DNA of 64,000 nucleotides, from positions 42,998 to 106,997 of the forward strand of contig CAZMBE010000006.1 of assembly GCA_964564625.1 (NCBI GenBank), given 5' to 3'. Numbering within the stretch: the stretch's first letter is position 1; every line of letters begins with the position of its first letter. Source of the stretch: an uncultured Syntrophaceae bacterium (GTDB lineage: Bacteria; Desulfobacterota; Syntrophia; Syntrophales; UBA2185). The notes under the pieces are model-generated. The model was not told where the DNA came from and did not search any database. It worked only from the letters and a program-made list of their open reading frames with translations. Made by a program: the position numbers and the translations under genes. Below, in pieces: positions 6,070 through 15,745 of this stretch.

Positions 6070-6088
6070 AATTTTTCTTGGGTTGATG

Positions 6089-6547: not shown

Positions 6548-8227
6548 ATGTTTGATGTAAAGGAGTTGGAAAAGATCAAAGCCGGGAAACAGAAATGGGC
6601 GGGAGGGCCTCTGGCGAAGACCTTGAGTAAAGCCCCGGAAAAAAAGGCTTTCACCACATGGTCCGGCATCCCTGTCGAGACTCTCTATACCCCGGCGGAA
6701 GTTGCCGGTATAGACTACGAGAGCAAAATCGGCTATCCCGGTATGTATCCGTATACCCGTGGTGTTCAGCCGAACATGTTTCGGGGCAGGTTCTGGACCA
6801 TGCGTCAGTATGCCGGATTCGGCAGCGCCAAAGAGACGAATGCCCGCTACCGCTACCTGTTAGGTCAGGGGCAGACGGGATTGAGTGTGGCCTTTCATCT
6901 TCCCACCCAGGCAGGTTATGACAGTGACCATCCCCTCTCCATGGGCGAGGTAGGAAAGGTCGGCGCGGCCATAGACCATATCGGCGATATGCGCATTCTG
7001 TTTGACAAGATTCCTCTGGAAAAGGTCACCACGTCCATGACCGTCAATGCGGCAGCGACGGCGCTTCTGGGCATGTACCTGTCCGTTGCCGAAGAACAGG
7101 GTGCGAAGTACGATCAGTTGGGTGGAACCATACAGAATGATGTTTTGAAAGAAATCATCTGTCGTGGCCAGTATATCTATCCCCCCAAGCCGACCATGCG
7201 CCTCACCGTCGATCTGATCGAGTTCTGCCAGAAATATGTTCCCCGGTGGAACAGCATCAGTATCAGCGGGTATCACATCCGCGAATCAGGTTCCACTGCG
7301 GCTCAGGAAATAGCGTTCACCATCGCGGATGGAATCGCGTATGCTGAAGCCTGCGCAGCAAGAGGGATCCCAGTCGATAGTTTTGCACCGCGTCTCTCCT
7401 TCTTCTTTAATGCCTTCACCGATGTTCTGGAAGAGGTAGCAAAATTCCGCGCCGCGAGACGCGTATGGGCAAAAATCATGAAGGAGAGGTTCAAGGCCAC
7501 AGATCCCCGGTCCATGATGCTCCGTTACCATGTGCAGACCGGTGGTGTTACCCTGACGGCACAGCAGCCGTTGAACAACATCGTAAGAGTTGCCTTGCAG
7601 ACACTCGCCACCGCATTAGGCGGGAACCAGTCCCTCCATACAAATTCGTATGATGAGGCCCTGTGTCTCCCCACCCAGGGGGCAGTGACCGTCGCCCTCA
7701 GGACCCAGCAGATTATCGCCGAGGAGAGCGGCGCCTGTGTGACCGTCGATCCTCTGGCCGGTTCTTACTATGTAGAGTACCTGACCGACAAGATCGAGGC
7801 GGAAGTCGAAGATTACATCAAGAAGATTGACGCCATGGGTGGAACCCTGACGGCCATCGAGCAGGGTTATATTCAGAAGGAAATTCAGAACAGTGCGTAT
7901 CTGTTCCAGAAGTCGATTGATTCCGGTGAGCGGGCATATGTCGGCGTGAACAAATATACCATGGAAGAACCCCCCGTAACGGATCTCCTGAGAGTGGATA
8001 TGAAGGTTGGCGAAGAAAAGGCCAAGGAACTCAAGGAATGGCGAGCCAAGCGCGATAATGCCGCCTGGAAAAAGGCCCTGGATAAACTGCGTGATGTATC
8101 AAAGACAGATACAAACGTAATGCCAGCTGTTATTGAGGCAGTAAAGGCCGGGGCTACCGTCGGCGAAGTCTGTGACGTGTGGCGTGATGTATTCGGGCAG
8201 TATCGACCCAAGGAATTTATTTCATAA
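6548..8227 (+). CDS. B12-dependent acyl-CoA mutase, large (substrate-binding TIM-barrel) subunit, methylmalonyl-CoA mutase family
   Basis: 559 aa. Contains YPYTRG, FWTMRQYAGFG, GLSVAFHLPTQAGYDSDHP and GGTIQNDVLKE. RBS is AGGAGG. Confidence 0.92.
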   Translation: MFDVKELEKIKAGKQKWAGGPLAKTLSKAPEKKAFTTWSGIPVETLYTPAEVAGIDYESKIGYPGMYPYTRGVQPNMFRGRFWTMRQYAGFGSAKETNARYRYLLGQGQTGLSVAFHLPTQAGYDSDHPLSMGEVGKVGAAIDHIGDMRILFDKIPLEKVTTSMTVNAAATALLGMYLSVAEEQGAKYDQLGGTIQNDVLKEIICRGQYIYPPKPTMRLTVDLIEFCQKYVPRWNSISISGYHIRESGSTAAQEIAFTIADGIAYAEACAARGIPVDSFAPRLSFFFNAFTDVLEEVAKFRAARRVWAKIMKERFKATDPRSMMLRYHVQTGGVTLTAQQPLNNIVRVALQTLATALGGNQSLHTNSYDEALCLPTQGAVTVALRTQQIIAEESGACVTVDPLAGSYYVEYLTDKIEAEVEDYIKKIDAMGGTLTAIEQGYIQKEIQNSAYLFQKSIDSGERAYVGVNKYTMEEPPVTDLLRVDMKVGEEKAKELKEWRAKRDNAAWKKALDKLRDVSKTDTNVMPAVIEAVKAGATVGEVCDVWRDVFGQYRPKEFIS

Positions 8228-8246
8228 TGTGTGGAGGTGACTTACA

Positions 8247-8648
8247 ATGGCAGAAAAGAAGATAAAAATTATCGTTGCAAAACCCGGGTTGGACGGCCAC
8301 GATCGTGGGGCCAAACTCCTTTCCCGTATCTTTGCTGAGGCCGGTATGGAAGTCGTCTACACCGGATTAAGGCAGACACCGGAAATGATTGTCGAAGCGG
8401 CGCTTCAGGAAGATGCTGATGTGGTTGGTTTGAGCAGTCTATCAGGTGTCCATAACTACTTCTTTCCGAGGGTGGTTGATCTGCTGAAGGAAAAGAAACT
8501 TGCTAATGTCCTCGTAGTTGGAGGAGGAATCATCCCACTGGAAGACATTCCCGAATTGAAGAAGGCGGGAGTTTCCGAAATCTTCGGACCGGGAACATCG
8601 ACGGAAGTTATCGTTGATTTTATTAAATCGAACGTAAAAGCCAAGTAA
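8247..8648 (+). CDS. Acyl-CoA mutase small subunit (cobalamin-binding domain)
   Basis: 133 aa. B12-binding DxHxxG motif ([12 protein letters not shown]) plus SSLSG and GGGIIP. Starts 19 nt after the large subunit. Confidence 0.92.
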
Positions 8649-8689
8649 CGAAACGTCCGTAATGTACGGATACGCTGTAGAGATGAGCA

Positions 8690-8722
8690 GGGGAGGTTGC
8701 ATACCGCCTCCCCTGTACTATT
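8690..8722 (+). terminator. Stem-loop between the mutase small subunit and meaB (partial terminator or processing site)
   Basis: GGGGAGG (8690-8696) pairs with CCTCCCC (8707-8713), followed by TGTACTATTT. Confidence 0.35.
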
Positions 8723-8798
8723 TAACTATAAATCGACCATTAGTTGATGCGTTTTGCGATTTACTAATGTATCACTGTTCAGGATCGAATAAAAAGCT

Positions 8799-9758
8799 AT
8801 GATTATGGATTATGTAGCCGAAATCCTTCAGGGATCGCCGTTGGCAGTTTCCCGCGTCATCACTTGGCTGGAAAACGAGGATGAACGGGCCCGGGTATTA
8901 ATGAAAGAGATCTATTCTCACACCGGGAATGCGTATTTGCTGGGAGTCACCGGTTCTCCCGGTACAGGGAAGAGCACCCTTACGGACGGTCTTACCTGGC
9001 AACTGCGCAATAAAGGACTTACCGTGGGGATTGTAGCGGTTGATCCTTCAAGTCCCTTCACAGGAGGAGCCTTGTTGGGAGACCGGATAAGGATGACCCG
9101 GCACAGTGAGGATTCAGGGGTCTTCATGCGCAGCATGGCTACCCGCGGCTATCTCGGTGGGCTTGCCCAGTTTTCGAGGGGAGCGGTCAAAGTGCTTGAT
9201 GCTTCGGGGAAAGACTACGTAATCATCGAGACCGTAGGGGTAGGGCAGGACGAAGTGGACATTATGCGCGTTGCGGATACCACATGCGTCGTTCTGGTTC
9301 CCGGCCTCGGTGATGTGATTCAGAGCATGAAAGCCGGGATTATGGAAATCGCGGACATTTACGTGATCAACAAATACGATCAGCCTGGGGCGGATCAGCT
9401 GTATTCTGAGGTTCGGTTCCGGGTTGATCAGGATGCGAGTATAAAAGACCGTAGTTGGGTGCCTCCGGTTATCCGAACTGTTGCCGTCGAGGGAAAAGGC
9501 GAGGATGATCTCATAGAAGCCATAGCGGCGCATCGAACGTATCTGGAGCAGAGCGGGAAACTTCTGGAAAAACGTCGAGAAAGGACACGTGAAGAGACCC
9601 TGCAAATGATTCACCATGAACTCTTCCGTATTATCCGCGCACGACTTGCCGAAAATAGCAGAATCGAACATATGGTAGAGAAGATCATGGACCATGAGCT
9701 GAGCCCATACAATGTTGTGGAGGAAGTAGTCGGTGAGTGGCTCCCTCCAGCAAAGTAA
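8799..9758 (+). CDS. meaB: MeaB/ArgK-type G-protein chaperone of B12 mutases
   Basis: 319 aa. P-loop GVTGSPGTGKSTL, ETVGVGQ and NKYD motifs. Located next to the mutase subunits. Confidence 0.9.
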   Translation: MIMDYVAEILQGSPLAVSRVITWLENEDERARVLMKEIYSHTGNAYLLGVTGSPGTGKSTLTDGLTWQLRNKGLTVGIVAVDPSSPFTGGALLGDRIRMTRHSEDSGVFMRSMATRGYLGGLAQFSRGAVKVLDASGKDYVIIETVGVGQDEVDIMRVADTTCVVLVPGLGDVIQSMKAGIMEIADIYVINKYDQPGADQLYSEVRFRVDQDASIKDRSWVPPVIRTVAVEGKGEDDLIEAIAAHRTYLEQSGKLLEKRRERTREETLQMIHHELFRIIRARLAENSRIEHMVEKIMDHELSPYNVVEEVVGEWLPPAK

Positions 9759-9993
9759 GGCAGTTAAAGGACACTCGGCCTCGCATAACTTCAGGCGTAG
9801 TAAAGTATCATTTCGTAAAAAGCTCTCCTACTAACCACAGGAAACAGACAAGTGCGTATTTCTGAGGGTTATTTGTATTTCAATTTGCTTTCGATCATGT
9901 ATAGCCACAGAAAATTTGTTTCTTAAGATCTTTTGTGATATAAATTTAAAAGAACATATTGAATGAGATTATCAAGCTATCGGGAGATGATTC

Positions 9994-10488
9994 ATGAGAA
10001 AAGATAGCCTCGTATGTTTCCGTTTGAGTAGAAACATGCGCGAATCCTTGGCCAAAGTGGCTCAAGAGGATAAACGATCTCTTTCATCAATGATCGAGAT
10101 CATTCTATCCCTTTATCTGAAAGAGAGGAAAGCGCTTAAGGGTGTCAAGAAAGAGAAACGTCAGTACCCGAGAAAAGCCGTTTCTGTCCCCGCTTTTATT
10201 AATCAATGCAGTTCGGGGGAAACAAAGTTGCATACGGGATCAGTAACGAATATTTCCCTCGGGGGTGTACACGTATCTATTCCCCAGGATGTTGCGGATG
10301 AAATTTTAGTCGATCCGGATAAAACTAAATTTGAAATTATTTTCACGTTGCCCAATGAGAGCAGGCCCATTCGTCTAATGTGTGAACCGAGGAGAGTGGT
10401 AGATATCAAAGAAGCTCTTCATGTCGGTGCATCTTTTGTCGATGCCGATTTTAACAGCTATAAAGCACTTCATACCTACCTTACGTGA
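9994..10488 (+). CDS. Ribbon-helix-helix (CopG-like) DNA-binding domain fused to a PilZ c-di-GMP-binding domain
   Basis: 164 aa. The N-terminus VCFRLSRNMRESLAKVAQEDKRSLSSMIEIILSLYL has an RHH pattern. PilZ motifs RQYPR (RxxxR) and NISLGG ((D/N)xSxxG) are present. Confidence 0.7.
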   Translation: MRKDSLVCFRLSRNMRESLAKVAQEDKRSLSSMIEIILSLYLKERKALKGVKKEKRQYPRKAVSVPAFINQCSSGETKLHTGSVTNISLGGVHVSIPQDVADEILVDPDKTKFEIIFTLPNESRPIRLMCEPRRVVDIKEALHVGASFVDADFNSYKALHTYLT

Positions 10489-10609: not shown

Positions 10610-11014
10610 ATGAAACAGAGAAAATCGGTAACTGGGAAGGAAAATATAGTCAATTTCAAAGGAATCATGAACCAAAAAAAGAGAAGCGACGTGTGTGCCC
10701 TGGGGTATGACGAGTTCAAATTTGCAGTTACCCAAATCCTTCTGAGTATAGTCGAGGCCATGGGGGAGAATAATAAAAAAATAGATGAATCCTTTAAAAG
10801 GTTAATTGATCATCTTAAAATGGTCAGCGATGAATTGAAATTTATAAAAAAAGTGCTTTATATGGAAAGGATATTGAACGGTGAACACAGGGACGGACCT
10901 ATGACCATTGAGCAAAAAGCATTACTGGCAGAAGCATTTGGGTTCGAGTTCAACGAATTTGTGAAGCAGGCTACACGCAAAAGAAAAAGCCCTAAAAGTA
11001 AAAAAACATCGTAA
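10610..11014 (+). CDS. Hypothetical protein with Lys-rich C-terminus
   Basis: 134 aa ORF. The RBS is weak (TTGGAGA). No motif recognised. Confidence 0.4.
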   Translation: MKQRKSVTGKENIVNFKGIMNQKKRSDVCALGYDEFKFAVTQILLSIVEAMGENNKKIDESFKRLIDHLKMVSDELKFIKKVLYMERILNGEHRDGPMTIEQKALLAEAFGFEFNEFVKQATRKRKSPKSKKTS

Positions 11015-11107: not shown

Positions 11108-13765
11108 TTAGTTGGCCCGGGTCTGGCGATAGTACCAGTGCAATTGTCCGCGGCTGCTGTCTTCGTCAATATTCTCCTCGGCGATCATCTTTTCTCCCCG
11201 CGCAGAGGGCAATACTTCCTTGAGTTTCCATGTGTTCTCGTGGCGGCCGAATGTCCAGTATTCTTCGAAGGGTGTCACGTAGCGCTGTTCGTTCAAAATC
11301 CGCGGGCCTTTGCGCATAGCCTTTTGGGCATGTGCGCTGATACGCACAATGAATTCATCTTTTGCCGGATTGGCAAAATTTCTCACCAGGATCAGCTCTA
11401 CTTTGCGAACGCAAAAGTTTCGATACTCCACGGTAATCCCGTCCATTTTCCATTGCCCGATCTGCGTGCGCAGGTTCTGTGCCACATCCTTAAAGAGGTC
11501 GCTTTCCGGCACCTGCGCCGGTTCTCCCGACTCCTGCACGAGAAAGACATTTAAAAATACCTGTCGCGCCCTCTCCAGCATTTTCGTGCGGTCCCAGATT
11601 TTGTCCGTTTGGACAAGGAAGCTCAAAAGACGGTCTATCCGTGTGGATTTTTCTCCGACACCCTTCTCAAGCCAGGGCCCCGCCGCACCCGTTATTGTCG
11701 CCGTTTCTCCGTAAATATTTTGGATAGTCTGGTCGGTAAACATCTCTGCAAAGTTCTCATCCTTCAGAATATCAGATTCTCCGGCCTGTTCGATCTCTCG
11801 GAGCAGCCAGGTATTTCCTGAACGGTGGAATGTCCAGAATTCCTGAAACCGCGCAGGGCTTTGGTCGCCTCTTAAAAATTTATTTGTATGGTCATCCACA
11901 TAGTAATCCCGCGCAGAGGCGGTTATGAGTGCGGTAAATTCACGCTGGTCGGGCTTTTCCGTGTAGCGGACATTCACCAGATCCACCCGCTCGACGTGAA
12001 GGTTCTCGATCCGGTTGATCTCATGGTTACGAACCAGTCCCTGGAGCTGCGATGTGTGCTGGAGGAAGAGATCGTCTGTGAGGAGTGGCTTCATCGGTCC
12101 ATAATCACGTTTCTCCCAGCATTCCTGCAGTGTACGAAATGTGGATTCGGTAAGTCTTAGCAATTCTTTTGGCGATAATAAAGGATCCTGCGTGCTTAAG
12201 AAATCCAGCAGCTTTTCCGTGCGGGAGCTTTTGGAGCCTACTTCCTCTGGGCTGTAAAGGAAATCCAAATTTTCGCTTTTCGAGGACCTGCGCCGTGTTG
12301 ACATAGAAGACCAGATCACAAGACCTATGCAGACAGTCCAGAAGATAATTACCCCGATTATTTCCACGGCGTCGCCGGGTGATTCGCTCTGGCCTGATCG
12401 TGAACCTGATCTTGAACTCGATCCGGAGCTGGAACGGCTGGAACTCCCTCCCTTATTGTGTACCAGAAAATCCGCTGCGAGAAACGTATGCGGCTGATCC
12501 ACACTGACGTTGTAAACTAACTCATCCCGTTCGCTTATTGACGTTTCGAGAACCGAAGCCTTCTTCAGCGTGTCGTCACTCCACGCAAGCACGGAGTGTC
12601 CGGGACGGAGCTTCCCCGCTTCGAGGAATGTGCCGTCAGGCAGACCAAGGGGGTGGTCCCGGGTCGTGCGGAGGACGCCGCGATCCGTCTTCACCACAAA
12701 GGTACGGGAATGTGTTGCGAAGATCTTTTTCACCCTTGCGTTCATCATGCGTTGCGCTGTATCAATTGCCTGCACGGTAGCGCCCGCGGAAAGCGTTTCG
12801 ATAGGAACTTGACCCGATGAAGTTCGGATCATGGTTCCGGCGGGGAAGCAACCACCGCCACCGCCTTTATTATGGACGGCGATGCCGCCAGCGAAAAAGG
12901 TGTTCGGATGATCGGTCTGAAGATTGTATACCCGAACGCGTTCGTGAACCCTCTCGAGCGAGAGGATTCTCTGTTCAGAAAGTGCCTTGCCATCCCAGGC
13001 GAAAATGGCATCACCGGTATTGAGAGCGTCTATTGTTTTAAACGTACCCTGTCCGACATAGAAGGGATGCTCAACAGTTACTTTGAGGATTCTGCGGTCT
13101 GTCTTGAGGATTACGTATTCATCAACCTTGTGACGAATGATGTGTCTCACCTTTGTGTGCACAATACGACCATCGGTCGAGTATGCGAGTAAATCATCTC
13201 CCGGACGGACATCACTGATGAGCGTTTCCGTGCCGTCGGATTTCAATATCCCGCTGTCTGGGAGAAAACAACCCTTGTTGTGAACTACCATATTGGCAGG
13301 AAAGAACGTCCCTCCCGGGATAACCAGTAAATTATGCGCAGGCTGCTGTGCCTGAACATGTTGAATTGAGTGGATAGGAACTTCTTGGAGGCGGCCGCCT
13401 CGCATGATGGTAACCATATCACCGACGTTAAGCAGCCTGGCGACGCGGTATTCACCGGGACCCACCATCACCGGGTGCTCTGAGGTGATTTTCACCGATT
13501 CTTCTCCGGCGGAAATCTTCAGATAATGATCGGTACTGACTTCGGTCAGCATCTGAACTTCTCCTGCCAGGATTTTTTCACGCGAAAAGCTCCAGACCTT
13601 GTCGCCCACGCGAAGCTTTTCAATTGCAACAATGCCTGTGGGAGTCATGACAGGAGTGCCTTTTGCCAGACAACCTCCGCCGCCGCGCGCAAAAACTGGG
13701 GTTGAAAAAAGAAAAACAAACAGTATTGCTCCTAATGCAACACTTTTTTTCATTGATCCTTCCAT
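11108..13765 (-). CDS. Membrane protein: signal peptide, 3 tandem Hint (Hedgehog/intein-like) domains, TM helix, 2 Tim44-like domains
   Basis: 885-aa ORF. The likely start is the internal ATG at 13753 (MKKSVALGAILFVFLFSTPVFA), which has GGAAGGA upstream. Three modules each start with G-C-(L/F)-x-x-G-T, contain T-x-(E/D)-H-P and end in V-H-N-K-G. A Ser/Arg-rich linker and a TM helix (AVEIIGVIIFWTVCIGLVIWS) follow. The C-terminal half holds two repeats resembling the Tim44 C-terminal domain (WTFHRSGNTWLLREI and WTFGRHENTWKLKEV). Confidence 0.8.
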   Translation of the reverse strand: MEGSMKKSVALGAILFVFLFSTPVFARGGGGCLAKGTPVMTPTGIVAIEKLRVGDKVWSFSREKILAGEVQMLTEVSTDHYLKISAGEESVKITSEHPVMVGPGEYRVARLLNVGDMVTIMRGGRLQEVPIHSIQHVQAQQPAHNLLVIPGGTFFPANMVVHNKGCFLPDSGILKSDGTETLISDVRPGDDLLAYSTDGRIVHTKVRHIIRHKVDEYVILKTDRRILKVTVEHPFYVGQGTFKTIDALNTGDAIFAWDGKALSEQRILSLERVHERVRVYNLQTDHPNTFFAGGIAVHNKGGGGGCFPAGTMIRTSSGQVPIETLSAGATVQAIDTAQRMMNARVKKIFATHSRTFVVKTDRGVLRTTRDHPLGLPDGTFLEAGKLRPGHSVLAWSDDTLKKASVLETSISERDELVYNVSVDQPHTFLAADFLVHNKGGSSSRSSSGSSSRSGSRSGQSESPGDAVEIIGVIIFWTVCIGLVIWSSMSTRRRSSKSENLDFLYSPEEVGSKSSRTEKLLDFLSTQDPLLSPKELLRLTESTFRTLQECWEKRDYGPMKPLLTDDLFLQHTSQLQGLVRNHEINRIENLHVERVDLVNVRYTEKPDQREFTALITASARDYYVDDHTNKFLRGDQSPARFQEFWTFHRSGNTWLLREIEQAGESDILKDENFAEMFTDQTIQNIYGETATITGAAGPWLEKGVGEKSTRIDRLLSFLVQTDKIWDRTKMLERARQVFLNVFLVQESGEPAQVPESDLFKDVAQNLRTQIGQWKMDGITVEYRNFCVRKVELILVRNFANPAKDEFIVRISAHAQKAMRKGPRILNEQRYVTPFEEYWTFGRHENTWKLKEVLPSARGEKMIAEENIDEDSSRGQLHWYYRQTRAN

Positions 13766-13867
13766 CAGTTCGCAAACCGGGTAGTGCCCCGGCCTCCAGA
13801 ATAAAGCTTTGTGAGGGAGTTAATGAGTCAGGAATACCTCTTTCGATATGCTTCAAATTGGCCGGTC

Positions 13868-14137
13868 TTAATGAAGCGCCGCGATGATGCCGCCAAGCAC
13901 TGCGGCGCCAATGACAATGCTCAGTCCGAGAATGCAGGCTCCCACTATCCTGCCGTAGTATTCTGCCACGGCGGCGTTACCGCGGGCGATTTCCCTTCCC
14001 TCATCGATGTTCGGAGTCAACCTTTCCATCAGCTTCGGTACAACACTTGACGCCAGAAGGACCAGCGCCATGCCGATGAGACCACCCACCAGAGAAAAGA
14101 GCATGGACCATCCAATATCACTCACTGTCTGTATCAT
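13868..14137 (-). CDS. DUF350-family small integral membrane protein
   Basis: 89 aa with hydrophobic helices separated by IDEGREIARGNAAVAEYYG, as I recall for DUF350. Confidence 0.65.
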   Translation of the reverse strand: MIQTVSDIGWSMLFSLVGGLIGMALVLLASSVVPKLMERLTPNIDEGREIARGNAAVAEYYGRIVGACILGLSIVIGAAVLGGIIAALH

Positions 14138-14199
14138 AGAACCCCCTTTCTTGTACGGGATCAGGATATACCATCACCGTAATCAACAGCATGGCTTGA

Positions 14200-14757
14200 T
14201 TAAAACTTGACTTGCGGAACCTCGCGGTCCCCGGCCGCTTCCATTTGAAAAAAAGGTTCTGCCTGAAAGGTATACATACTGGCAATTATGTTCCCGGGGA
14301 ACATTTCCACCTTGTTTTTATACCGCATGGCAGCATCGTTATAATACTGGCGGGAAAACCCGATCTTGTTCTCCGTCGCAGCCAATTCCTCCTGCAGTGC
14401 TATGAAATTCTCATTCGCTTTCAGGTTGGGGTATGCCTCGGCCAGGGCAAAGAGAGACCGCAAAGTCCGGGTTAAAGCGTTTTCGGCCTTGGCCCGCTCT
14501 GCGACGTTTCCCAGAGACGTTACTGCCTCCTGCCGTGCCTTGATGACCGCATCCAATGTCTGTCTCTCGTGGGCGGCGTACCCCTTAACAGATTCAATGA
14601 TATTTGGAATCAGATCATGACGCCGCTTGAGTTGCACATCAATCGAGCTCCAGGCATTTTTTACTTCATTGCGGGCGCGAACGAGGCCGTTGTAAAGGCT
14701 GATGATAAAGATACCACACACTGCGACAATGCCCAAAAAAACTAGAATCGATACCAT
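14200..14757 (-). CDS. lemA: LemA family protein
   Basis: 185 aa. N-terminal TM helix followed by YNGLVRARNEVKNAWSSIDVQLKRRHDLIPN...YYNDAAMRYKNKVEMFPGNI, the classic LemA signature. RBS is AAAGGAGGAG. Confidence 0.9.
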   Translation of the reverse strand: MVSILVFLGIVAVCGIFIISLYNGLVRARNEVKNAWSSIDVQLKRRHDLIPNIIESVKGYAAHERQTLDAVIKARQEAVTSLGNVAERAKAENALTRTLRSLFALAEAYPNLKANENFIALQEELAATENKIGFSRQYYNDAAMRYKNKVEMFPGNIIASMYTFQAEPFFQMEAAGDREVPQVKF

Positions 14758-14792
14758 TTCTCCTCCTTTATCATACCAAGGTAATGGGATAC

Positions 14793-14821
14793 ACTATAAG
14801 GAAAACAGACATGACCGTCAA
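14793..14821 (-). promoter_or_regulatory. Sigma-70-type promoter of the lemA operon
   Basis: The minus strand reads TTGACG (14821-14816), 17 nt, TATAGT (14798-14793), about 35 nt upstream of the lemA ATG. Confidence 0.6.
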
Positions 14822-15310: not shown

Positions 15311-15745
15311 ATGCTTAAACAGTTTAAAGAAAATGCCCAGGAATGGGTGGAAAAGGCGATAGTGTATTATAAGAATTCCGGCAAGAAAATTGCTTTAGCT
15401 GAGTATTCAAATCCCACAGGACAGTTTGTCCAAGGCGAACTGTATATTTTTGTGTTGAGCCCCAAAGGGACTATGCTCGCACACGGAGTCAATGAAAGAT
15501 TTGTGGGGCAGGAGTTTGCCGATCTCAAAGACGCTGATGGAAAGCATTTCGTCAAGGAAATTCTTGAAACCGCCAACACACAAGGCAGTGGCTGGGTAAC
15601 TTACAAATGGCATCACCCAACGATAAAAGAGGTGCTCCCTAAGTACCTGTATTTTAAGAAAGTTGATGATTTGATCATTTGCAGTGGCATCTACCAGGTG
15701 GAACCGCAAACCTATATCTCTCAACCGGTTAAGCCGGAGAGCTGA
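15311..15745 (+). CDS. Stand-alone single-Cache (sCache_2-like) sensor domain protein
   Basis: 144 aa. YIFVLSPKGTMLAHGVNERFVGQEF...GSGWVTYKWHHP...KYLYFKKV is a typical Cache_2 pattern. RBS is AAAGGAGG. No signal peptide is evident. Confidence 0.7.
   Translation: MLKQFKENAQEWVEKAIVYYKNSGKKIALAEYSNPTGQFVQGELYIFVLSPKGTMLAHGVNERFVGQEFADLKDADGKHFVKEILETANTQGSGWVTYKWHHPTIKEVLPKYLYFKKVDDLIICSGIYQVEPQTYISQPVKPES

Follow-up and report, generated by a model that had tools for sequence, protein, structure and literature searches.

What could three consecutive Hint modules be doing on the predicted periplasmic side of a bacterial membrane protein whose other half consists of two Tim44-like domains? The question is raised by a locus at positions 11,108-14,821 of a 64,000-nt stretch of DNA from an uncultured Syntrophaceae bacterium (CAZMBE010000006.1, 42,998-106,997; hereafter the window). 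Three co-directional open reading frames (ORFs) on its minus strand encode, in order of transcription, a LemA family protein, a small DUF350 membrane protein and a protein of 885 amino acids (aa). The core of the system is a pair, formed by the two-helix DUF350 protein and a single-pass protein whose periplasmic tail is short and rich in Gly and Ser and whose cytoplasmic part holds two Tim44-like domains (the topology being predicted). In one large branch of the family, which includes the window, sequence comparison places one to six modules of the bacterial intein-like (BIL) or PT-HINT kind within that tail, inserted directly after the signal-peptidase site. We give about an even chance to the reading that these Hints are autocatalytic pro-modules that would remove themselves, in the periplasm, from a conserved inner-membrane module of DUF350 and tandem Tim44-like domains. 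The three genes and the parts of the large protein are as follows (nucleotide positions are those of the window).

14200..14757, minus strand: LemA family protein, 185 aa, with an N-terminal transmembrane (TM) helix followed by a predicted cytoplasmic helical domain; a clade-specific accessory gene.
13868..14137, minus strand: single-repeat DUF350 membrane protein, 89 aa, two TM helices; partner gene of the large protein.
11108..13765, minus strand: large protein, 885 aa, in the order signal peptide, three Hint modules, Ser/Gly/Arg tail, TM helix, two Tim44-like domains.
13688..13765, minus strand: signal peptide, aa 1-26, with predicted cleavage between VFA and R, called from hydrophobicity and from a model with a helix at residues 2-20 and then a disordered stretch.
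13673..13687, minus strand: RGGGG unit ahead of Cys1 of Hint 1, aa 27-31.
13277..13672, minus strand: Hint module 1, type A, aa 32-163, with Cys32, T94-x-x-H97 (TSEH) and H162-N163.
13271..13276, minus strand: Lys-Gly linker between Hint 1 and Hint 2, aa 164-165; K164 and G165 are invariant.
12869..13270, minus strand: Hint module 2, type B, aa 166-299, with Cys166 (GCF junction), T230-x-x-H233 (TVEH) and H298-N299.
12851..12868, minus strand: KGGGGG linker, aa 300-305.
12455..12850, minus strand: Hint module 3, type C, aa 306-437, with Cys306 (GCF junction), T368-x-x-H371 (TRDH) and H436-N437.
12368..12454, minus strand: Lys-Gly-Gly and Ser/Gly/Arg-rich juxtamembrane tail, aa 438-466, disordered, with a predicted local distance difference test score (pLDDT) below 50.
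12293..12367, minus strand: TM helix, aa 467-491, with basic residues (RRR..K) after it.
11786..12250, minus strand: Tim44-like domain A, approximately aa 506-660, predicted cytoplasmic.
11210..11665, minus strand: Tim44-like domain B, approximately aa 701-852, predicted cytoplasmic.

An earlier reading of the sequence, here called the original prediction, had placed three co-directional genes at these positions and assigned Hint, Tim44, LemA and DUF350 domains to them. Both the gene coordinates and the domain calls were borne out. In the large protein, the best-scoring Pfam model was PT-HINT (PF07591), which matched three stretches (E 1.4e-24, 87.3 bits against a cut-off of 27.7), while Tim44 (PF04280) matched two (E 2.9e-24, 86.3 bits against 29.6). 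The related models Hint (E 2.4e-20), Hint_2 (8.8e-16), Intein_splicing (7.3e-14) and Vint also exceeded their cut-offs, and the NCBIfam models of the N- and C-terminal intein splicing regions were matched as well. Two NCBIfam Tim44/TimA adaptor models (NF033779 and NF033778) stayed below threshold, with 49.1 bits against 80 and 12.5 against 200. The LemA protein, hydrophobic over residues 1-22, matched its Pfam family (PF04011) with E 1.6e-57 and 193.9 bits against a cut-off of 26.2. For DUF350 the match is seen at the level of the family: the window protein itself stays below threshold, with 22 bits against a cut-off of 26 (PF03994; E 1.8e-4) over positions 12-65 of the 133-position model, and 36 of 40 orthologues match the model at E <= 0.01, the best at E 2.7e-8. 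Judged by length and helix number (89 aa, 2 TM helices), the partner looks like a half-size DUF350/YjfL subfamily.

Predicted structures agree with these assignments. An AlphaFold2 model of the large protein, built on a 69-sequence alignment (mean pLDDT 80.5), contains three confident all-beta modules (pLDDT ~80-92), the TM helix at 467-491 and two alpha+beta domains. Disorder is seen at the signal-peptide junction, in the Gly run between Hints, over the tail at 439-466 and in the linkers between domains. When the Hint part was compared with the PDB by Foldseek, the best match was BIL2 from the Tetrahymena BUBL1 locus (6Y75/6TMM; E 9e-11, TM-score 0.81), with the NpuDnaB intein, the C. thermocellum BIL (2LWY) and Hedgehog (1AT0, 6TYY) also recovered (TM-scores of 0.76-0.86 for BIL2, NpuDnaB, 2LWY and 1AT0). 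In a comparison of sequences, the C. thermocellum BIL (2LWY) is also the PDB entry that matches best (E 1.7e-11, Hint module 3 being the best), at 31% identity in the structural alignment. A separate AlphaFold2 model of residues 488-885 (pLDDT 81) has the human and yeast Tim44 C-terminal domains as its best Foldseek matches (2CW9, 3QK9, 2FXT), followed by mitoribosomal large-subunit chains, which we take to be mL45, and then by tandem NTF2-like proteins. The Hint and Tim44 identities are thus confirmed by independent methods, profiles and predicted folds, and the closest relatives of the Hint modules are BIL domains. The topology proposed originally, with a signal peptide, periplasmic Hints, one TM helix and a cytoplasmic Tim44-like pair, is likewise supported by sequence and model. 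Tim44-type domains are membrane-binding modules of the NTF2 fold, and it is a reasonable guess that the core formed by DUF350 and the tandem Tim44-like domains acts at, or reports on, the inner membrane.

The Hint array was surveyed with a hidden Markov model made from the window modules, which yielded 485 complete modules in 166 full-length relatives. One Hint is present in 18 of these proteins, two in 35, three in 59, four in 52 and six in 2, and a single five-Hint protein (P0287) came from a separate scan of distant representatives. The three-Hint form, originally taken as a unit, is therefore one state of a variable array of 1, 2, 3, 4 or 6 modules (5 or none in distant relatives). The residues of both junctions hardly vary, and the Cys, T-x-x-H and His-Asn positions singled out by the original prediction proved essentially invariant. 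Cys1 is found in 482 of the 485 modules (99.4%), the three exceptions being truncations, and all 482 intact starts have Gly before it. Every module ends in His-Asn and continues with Lys-Gly (485/485 for each pair), so that position +1 is always Lys and never Cys, Ser or Thr. The block-B Thr and His of T-x-x-H are each conserved to 99.8%. Only 17 columns of the module alignment are conserved to 90% or more, and Cys1, the block-B Thr and His and the terminal His-Asn are among them. The 319 inter-Hint linkers consist of Lys and one to seven further residues, all Gly except in two instances of KGGGSG. Ahead of the first Hint, the unit is RGGGG in 138 of the 166 proteins, and at the signal-peptide site A26 is nearly invariant and R27 invariant across the family. 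Cysteines other than Cys1 make up 0.086% of residues inside the Hints vs 0.58% elsewhere in the protein, a depletion of about seven-fold, and Cys1 is the sole cysteine in 435 of the 485 modules. The juxtamembrane tail is 36% Ser and 29% Gly across the family.

The modules also fall into position-specific types. Type A (CLA/E...) is always first, type B (CFLP...) is second and follows A after exactly KG, and type C (CFPA...) is last; the module of single-Hint proteins is of type B. Modules at the same position in different proteins are 0.50-0.76 identical, vs ~0.28-0.33 for modules within one protein. This pattern indicates types that are ancient and orthologous by position across phyla, not recently spread. 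In the 69-sequence alignment, mean pairwise identity is 0.53-0.63 for the Hints and 0.62-0.64 for the Tim44 domains, and it is lowest, at 0.23, for the TM helix. A juxtamembrane segment, ENLD[FY]xY, is conserved. Taken together, the invariant junction residues, the depletion of cysteines, the position-specific types and a conservation near that of the Tim44 domains argue that the Hint modules are catalytically competent and under host-level selection, and not decayed, neutral or recently mobile.

A separate development of the array was seen in P0024 and P0088 (1264-1286 aa), whose six Hints are an A-B pair repeated three times, with repeat units 79-100% identical within a protein. This indicates that the six-Hint form arose by a recent tandem triplication of the A-KG-B pair, perhaps via the repeated Lys-Gly codons.

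What such modules can do is known in outline. Hint and BIL chemistry is familiar from inteins, from Hedgehog and polymorphic toxins, and from one ubiquitin-like system of ciliates. Across the HINT superfamily, Cys1, together with T-x-x-H, forms a thioester with the preceding residue, and the terminal Asn, together with the penultimate His, cyclises so that the C-terminal junction is cut. The BIL domain of C. thermocellum is said, in the title of a 2013 report by Aranko and co-workers (ref. 16 of PMC7664689), to ligate its flanks 'without nucleophilic side chains'. BIL domains in general have no nucleophile at +1, and their products are mainly N- and C-cleaved (PMC7664689; PMC7765530); in Tetrahymena BIL2 the epsilon-amine of a lysine resolves the thioester to form an isopeptide (PMC8616854). 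The modules described here share with the A-type BIL of C. thermocellum (2LWY) a minimal Hint fold of ~133-138 aa, Cys1, the block-B T-x-x-H, a C-terminal His-Asn and the lack of Cys, Ser or Thr at +1. They agree with A-type BIL/PT-HINT domains in every feature of sequence and fold that defines this class, but not in its usual context. The BILs known so far occur singly, in hypervariable parts of secreted proteins that are not conserved or of toxins (PMC7765530), whereas those of the present family form tandem arrays of fixed order, with one to six modules of diverged types, directly after a signal peptide. Their joints are made of Lys-Gly(n) only, with an invariant Lys at +1, and they belong to a conserved membrane protein with cytoplasmic Tim44-like domains.

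The relation of the Hints to the rest of the protein becomes apparent from relatives that lack them. Exhaustive searching with the cytoplasmic half recovered 1594 representatives at E <= 1e-3, of which 153 reached E <= 1e-30, and genuine Hint-less forms were found only among the more distant of these representatives. They are ~430-510 aa long and have two Tim44-like domains with only 70-115 residues ahead of them. Their N-termini (P0317-P0320) run from a signal peptide directly into RGG and a Gly/Ser/Tyr-rich stretch of low complexity that ends at a TM helix. With a slash at the cleavage site, they read ..ACA/RGGLLSSDSGSSGSYSG.. in P0317, ..CFA/RGGSYDGGGGSGFSS.. in P0319 and ..TYA/RGGGGGGTGGGGGGGFGGGYSGS.. 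in P0320, and the A/RGG motif is common to Hint-bearing and Hint-less forms. From this comparison the Hint-less relatives appear to be the window protein minus its Hints, and the Hints an insert in a Gly-rich periplasmic tail. A DUF350 gene of 88-89 aa lies directly upstream in P0317 and P0318, and the product of the former is 52% identical to that of the window. In one Brocadiia MAG (metagenome-assembled genome; L022, 5692-9986), a Hint-less paralogue, a DUF350 gene (7460-7732) and a two-Hint paralogue (7752-9986) stand in tandem. Once the two Hints are excised in silico, the paralogues are 74% identical end to end, and the match takes in the signal peptide, the A/RGGGG site and the FGG.GFGGGFHGSG tail. 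In the Hint-less copy, signal peptide and tail are intact and the frame is open between 5692 and 7287, but no ATG, GTG or TTG precedes nt 6070, so that its signal peptide has no canonical start codon upstream. The array thus varies from 0 to 6 modules, and the Hints are an add-on to the DUF350 and tandem Tim44-like device, not its core.

Not all sequences that seem to lack Hints belong to this group. Proteins of ~400 aa that appear as Tim44-only were considered as close Hint-less relatives and rejected, since their gene calls are truncated, with starts that fall within the TM helix or a Hint. Many public entries named TIM44-like domain-containing (P0121-P0240; ~350-550 aa) are likewise truncated calls of the Hint-Tim44 family, even on long contigs, which suggests that the repetitive Hint/Gly region is often hit by frameshifts or assembly breaks. 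In four Hint-bearing proteins (P0259, P0294, P0302 and P0327), three closely spaced hydrophobic segments replace the single TM helix between the Hints and the Tim44 half, which would mean an altered topology or an added membrane domain. In a separate family of ~285-315 aa (P0358, P0367, P0370, P0372, P0374-P0378, P0381, P0384), a single Tim44-like domain is preceded by a signal peptide, the conserved motif ..AQAGR[YF][IV]P.., a Gly-rich stretch and a TM helix; the family appears to be another uncharacterised bacterial Tim44-like architecture.

The distribution of the family shows which genes belong together. More than 1000 homologues of the large protein were found at E <= 1e-5, under database names such as 'polymorphic toxin-type HINT domain-containing', 'TIM44-like domain-containing' and 'predicted lipid-binding transport protein (Tim44 family)'. 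Some carry the JGI label YgcG. The exact protein of the window had no record when looked up in public assemblies. A scan with one genome per species gave 58 loci, all in MAGs, which span Deltaproteobacterial lineages (Syntrophales, Desulfarculales, Desulfobacteraceae), Planctomycetota, Verrucomicrobiota, Lentisphaerae, Kiritimatiellia, Elusimicrobia, Nitrospirota, Acidobacteria and Auribacterota, as well as one gammaproteobacterium and one DPANN archaeal bin; the family is spread over about ten phyla. Neighbours were sought by tblastn with the LemA and DUF350 proteins of the window, and the 53 loci having upstream DNA were informative. A DUF350 homologue lies directly upstream of the large gene in 52 of these 53 loci. 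LemA was found in 23 loci only, all of the deltaproteobacterial type, and was absent by tblastn from all Planctomycetota, Verrucomicrobiota, Lentisphaerae, Kiritimatiellia, Elusimicrobia, Nitrospirota and other loci. Because DUF350 is nearly always present and LemA is confined to one branch, the conserved unit is DUF350 and the protein with tandem Tim44-like domains, and LemA is a clade-specific addition. The synteny expected for all three genes accordingly holds for DUF350 and not for LemA, whose proposed role as a general membrane partner fails outside the deltaproteobacterial branch. Clustering of all ORFs flanking the loci revealed no further universal neighbour. The DUF350 partner, with its two TM helices, is 89 aa long in 43 of 57 cases, and it has a conserved loop, TPNIDExKEIxRGNxAVAEYxGR, in which P42, E49, I50, R52, G53, N54, A56 and Y60 are invariant.

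A few individual loci can be added. In the one informative locus without DUF350 (L007, 5391-8586), the end of LemA and the Hint-Tim44 gene are ~98 bp apart, too close for a DUF350 gene between them. The archaeal case (L056, 5721-8562) is a DUF350 and Hint-Tim44 pair (34% identity) on a 307-kb contig binned as the DPANN archaeon Candidatus Iainarchaeum, and reflects either horizontal transfer into an archaeon or a binning error. In Verrucomicrobiota (10 loci; L029 4359-4910, L033 8234-8791, L046 8615-9172), a multi-TM protein of ~185 aa with no significant Pfam match is encoded directly downstream, and may be the counterpart of deltaproteobacterial LemA in that clade.

Self-removal is preferred as the role of the Hints because a Lys is invariant after every Asn and because Hint-less relatives exist. 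Export by the Sec route and cleavage of the signal peptide would be followed by an N-to-S acyl shift at the invariant Gly-Cys junction of each Hint, and each Hint would cyclise its own invariant C-terminal Asn. The modules could then leave by simple cleavage at their N- and C-termini, or the Lys+1 amine could attack the Gly thioester. In the latter case, the attacking group may be the alpha-amine that Asn cyclisation sets free, a route proposed for the C. thermocellum BIL, or it may be the epsilon-amine, which Tetrahymena BIL2 uses. The mature product would be [R/K]-Gly(n)-Ser/Gly tail-TM helix-tandem Tim44-like domains, equivalent to the Hint-less relatives. The reactions of BILs and inteins respond to Zn2+ and redox state, and since the only periplasmic thiols of the protein would be catalytic ones, it may be speculated that self-removal is conditional on redox state or metal ions. 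LemA would act as a lineage-specific third membrane partner in Deltaproteobacteria. The idea, already in the original prediction, that periplasmic thioester chemistry of the Hints would be tied to cytoplasmic Tim44-like domains is supported. Where that prediction had left the choice between self-cleavage and ligation to an envelope nucleophile, self-removal is favoured and ligation is possible but not favoured, given that only RGGGG lies upstream of the first thioester.

Several observations weigh against this preferred reading. If the modules simply discard themselves, the retention of three or four diverged types in a fixed order brings no explained benefit, and conservation over the whole domain suggests that the Hints, whether released or retained, may do more than leave. 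Linkers of Gly only could serve as nothing more than flexible spacers. Nor does the TM helix, with its low conservation (0.23), lend support to a TM-TM interface with DUF350. An adjacent DUF350 is lacking in two of the four Hint-less relatives checked (P0320 and P0344). The Hint-less copy in the Brocadiia MAG could be a duplicate in decay, or could start from a rare codon, and hence is perhaps not a working control. Finally, homologues with an organism name are MAGs and the others come from metagenome collections, such that every member of the family is derived from metagenomes.

Because selection on whole Hints in a fixed order is not explained by self-removal, two other readings stay alive. 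In one, the array would be a conjugation or dispensing platform resembling BUBL or Hedgehog, in which the Gly thioesters are resolved, free of ATP, by an external nucleophile such as a lysine of an envelope protein, a peptidoglycan amine, phosphatidylethanolamine or a polyamine, so that RGGGG, Hint-KG or Lys-Gly(n) linker peptides end up on a target or are released in activated or cyclised form. Modules 2 and 3 do have the Hedgehog-like G/CF junction, and the arrangement [..HN]-K-G(n)-[C..] puts a Gly-terminated peptide between a C-cleavage site and a thioester site, which formally resembles the Hint-cargo-Hint order of BUBL. The linkers, strictly Lys and Gly, are tighter than spacers require, Hint conservation extends over the whole domain, and DUF350 occurs elsewhere in operons with polyamine-ligase genes (PMC11237479). 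The supposed cargo, however, amounts to 2-8 residues, with no ubiquitin-like or other folded cargo domain, and only RGGGG precedes the first thioester. No Hint is followed by a sterol- or ligand-recognition extension, as KG comes directly, and clustering of the flanking ORFs of the loci found no conserved candidate acceptor gene nearby. The number of Gly residues is free, from 1 to 7, which argues against a specific peptide product, and the Hint-less relatives show a core working without Hint chemistry. Tetrahymena BUBL (BIL2, 6Y75/6TMM) shares several Hint modules per polypeptide and Gly before Cys1, but it is eukaryotic and cytosolic, without a membrane anchor, DUF350 or Tim44, and its modules flank folded ubiquitin-like cargo, whereas here only Lys-Gly(1-7) stands between modules (bar the two KGGGSG). 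The Hedgehog Hog domain shares the Hint fold (1AT0, 6TYY), the G/CF junction of modules 2 and 3 and a secreted-protein substrate, but it lacks the C-terminal His-Asn and Asn cyclisation that are invariant in sequence here, and has a sterol-recognition region that is absent here. Conjugation is regarded as unlikely, although it heads the alternatives. Also doubtful is a BUBL-analogous, ATP-independent ligation machine of the bacterial periplasm, the outcome of which would be sensed by a complex of DUF350 and the tandem Tim44-like domains (and LemA where present). Here each upstream Hint would free the amine of the invariant Lys by Asn cyclisation, and each downstream Hint would convert the Gly carboxyl into an activated thioester. 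Lys and Gly would then be joined by isopeptide or peptide links, either by self-ligation into a defined Lys/Gly-rich tail or by transfer to envelope amines; alternatively, activated or cyclic Lys-Gly(n) peptides might be released.

The other reading that stays alive takes the Hints as a stable, unprocessed periplasmic ectodomain, a binding or spacer array in which the 'catalytic' residues are structural. It would account for conservation of whole Hint domains at about the level of Tim44, beyond the catalytic residues, and for a module order that is fixed and ancient. It does not sit well with the invariance of exactly the reaction residues of both junctions in 485 modules that are otherwise ~30% identical, with the depletion of all other cysteines, or with a copy number of 0 to 6 while the rest of the protein is unchanged, and we judge it improbable, below conjugation. 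Lower again comes the view of the Hints as selfish or neutral intein-like inserts that persist by splicing out cleanly and serve no host role. Insertion precisely inside a Gly run, the existence of Hint-less forms, a varying copy number and the recent (A-B)x3 triplication in six-Hint proteins are all compatible with such inserts, and Lys-Gly(n) repeats could drive the recombination by which modules are gained and lost. Yet the modules are minimal (~133 aa) and carry no homing endonuclease, a +1 nucleophile of the canonical-intein kind is missing, the types are position-specific and orthologous across phyla, and the Hints are under purifying selection about as strong as that acting on the host domains. 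A canonical (class 1) intein was rejected, on account of the invariant Lys at +1, insertion into a low-complexity Gly tail and ~133-aa modules without an endonuclease. The database name of some homologues implies a polymorphic toxin, whose Hint would release a C-terminal toxin, and PT-HINT is indeed the top Pfam model. This is effectively excluded by the architecture: a TM helix and two conserved Tim44-like domains follow the Hints, the C-terminus is highly conserved and has no variable toxin tip, and neither an immunity-like gene nor an RHS, filamentous-haemagglutinin-type or secretion-system context was found. Most clades have no conserved downstream gene among the flanking ORFs of the loci. 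A PADLOC search gave no match to a defence-system protein or toxin, its sole match being a negligible one to the homing-endonuclease model HEase (E 0.005, 13.7 bits), with no stretch passing alone.

The other components also differ in setting from their known relatives. With the Tim44 C-terminal domain family (mitochondrial Tim44, the mitoribosomal large-subunit protein taken to be mL45/Mba1, and alphaproteobacterial TimA), the large protein shares profile, fold and a predicted membrane-proximal position on the cytoplasmic or matrix-equivalent side, whereas the two tandem domains behind a TM helix, the periplasmic Hint fusion and the pairing with DUF350 are particular to it, and no link to protein import or ribosomes is evident. 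In LemA-TPM(YgcG) pairs and in YjfL/DUF350 PSP-polyamine operons, LemA and DUF350 are, as here, small membrane proteins that typically stand in operons with envelope proteins, and YgcG-type proteins have a Gly/Ser-rich juxtamembrane tail resembling that of the large protein. The present system differs from these in lacking a TPM domain, PspA and polyamine genes and in having LemA in one clade only. The best-studied LemA relative found is the magnetosome-membrane protein MamQ, for which there is an NCBIfam match. DUF350 is reported elsewhere from PspA-associated or polyamine envelope-stress operons, including some with polyamine-ligase genes (PMC11237479).

The original prediction had held that no characterised system combines these parts, and in the literature searched no paper pairs any two of Tim44, DUF350, PT-HINT and LemA; targeted searches found no published description of a Hint-Tim44 architecture. 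The chemistry module is known; what is new, and apparently undescribed, is the conserved architecture together with its gene pairing. With more than 1000 proteins in several bacterial phyla, the family offers a new natural context for protein-splicing chemistry, and three families of 'unknown function' (DUF350, bacterial Tim44-like and LemA) gain a concrete, testable handle. Clear predictions can be made as to cleavage or ligation products and their dependence on Cys1, the terminal Asn and Lys+1, with the Hint-less paralogues as natural controls. Compact, diverged, nucleophile-free modules of this type could also serve as orthogonal tools in protein engineering.

Some details of gene expression at the locus can be added. 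The intergenic gaps are 62 and 102 bp. Good Shine-Dalgarno sequences precede the LemA and DUF350 genes, that of LemA being a strong AAGGAGG. The large gene has no ribosome-binding site at its first ATG and an SD-like GGAAGGA 4-5 nt before the second, for which reason translation probably begins at M5 (nt 13753), where MKKSVALG... forms a typical n-region of a signal peptide; the protein would then have 881 aa. One further feature precedes the three genes.

14793..14821, minus strand: sigma-70-like promoter match, TTGACG-17-TATAGT, ~36 nt upstream of the LemA start, with 10/12 matches.

The promoter claimed for the locus is thus present as a sequence (14821-14793), but such sites are no commoner in the region than in shuffled sequence (6 observed vs 4.7 +/- 1.8). 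Statistically the match is not distinguishable from chance, and it is suggestive only.

The neighbouring genes encode proteins of other kinds. A small protein at 9994-10488 (plus strand) joins an Arc-like ribbon-helix-helix DNA-binding motif (E 4e-5) to a PilZ domain (E 7e-8), and may be a transcription factor responsive to cyclic di-GMP. Next to its gene is an unannotatable ORF of 134 aa (10610-11014) that faces the 3' end of the Hint-Tim44 gene. On the other side, divergent from the LemA promoter region, a gene at 15311-15745 (plus strand) encodes a stand-alone protein of 144 aa that consists of little beyond a single Cache (sCache_2/dCache_2) sensor domain, without an output domain.

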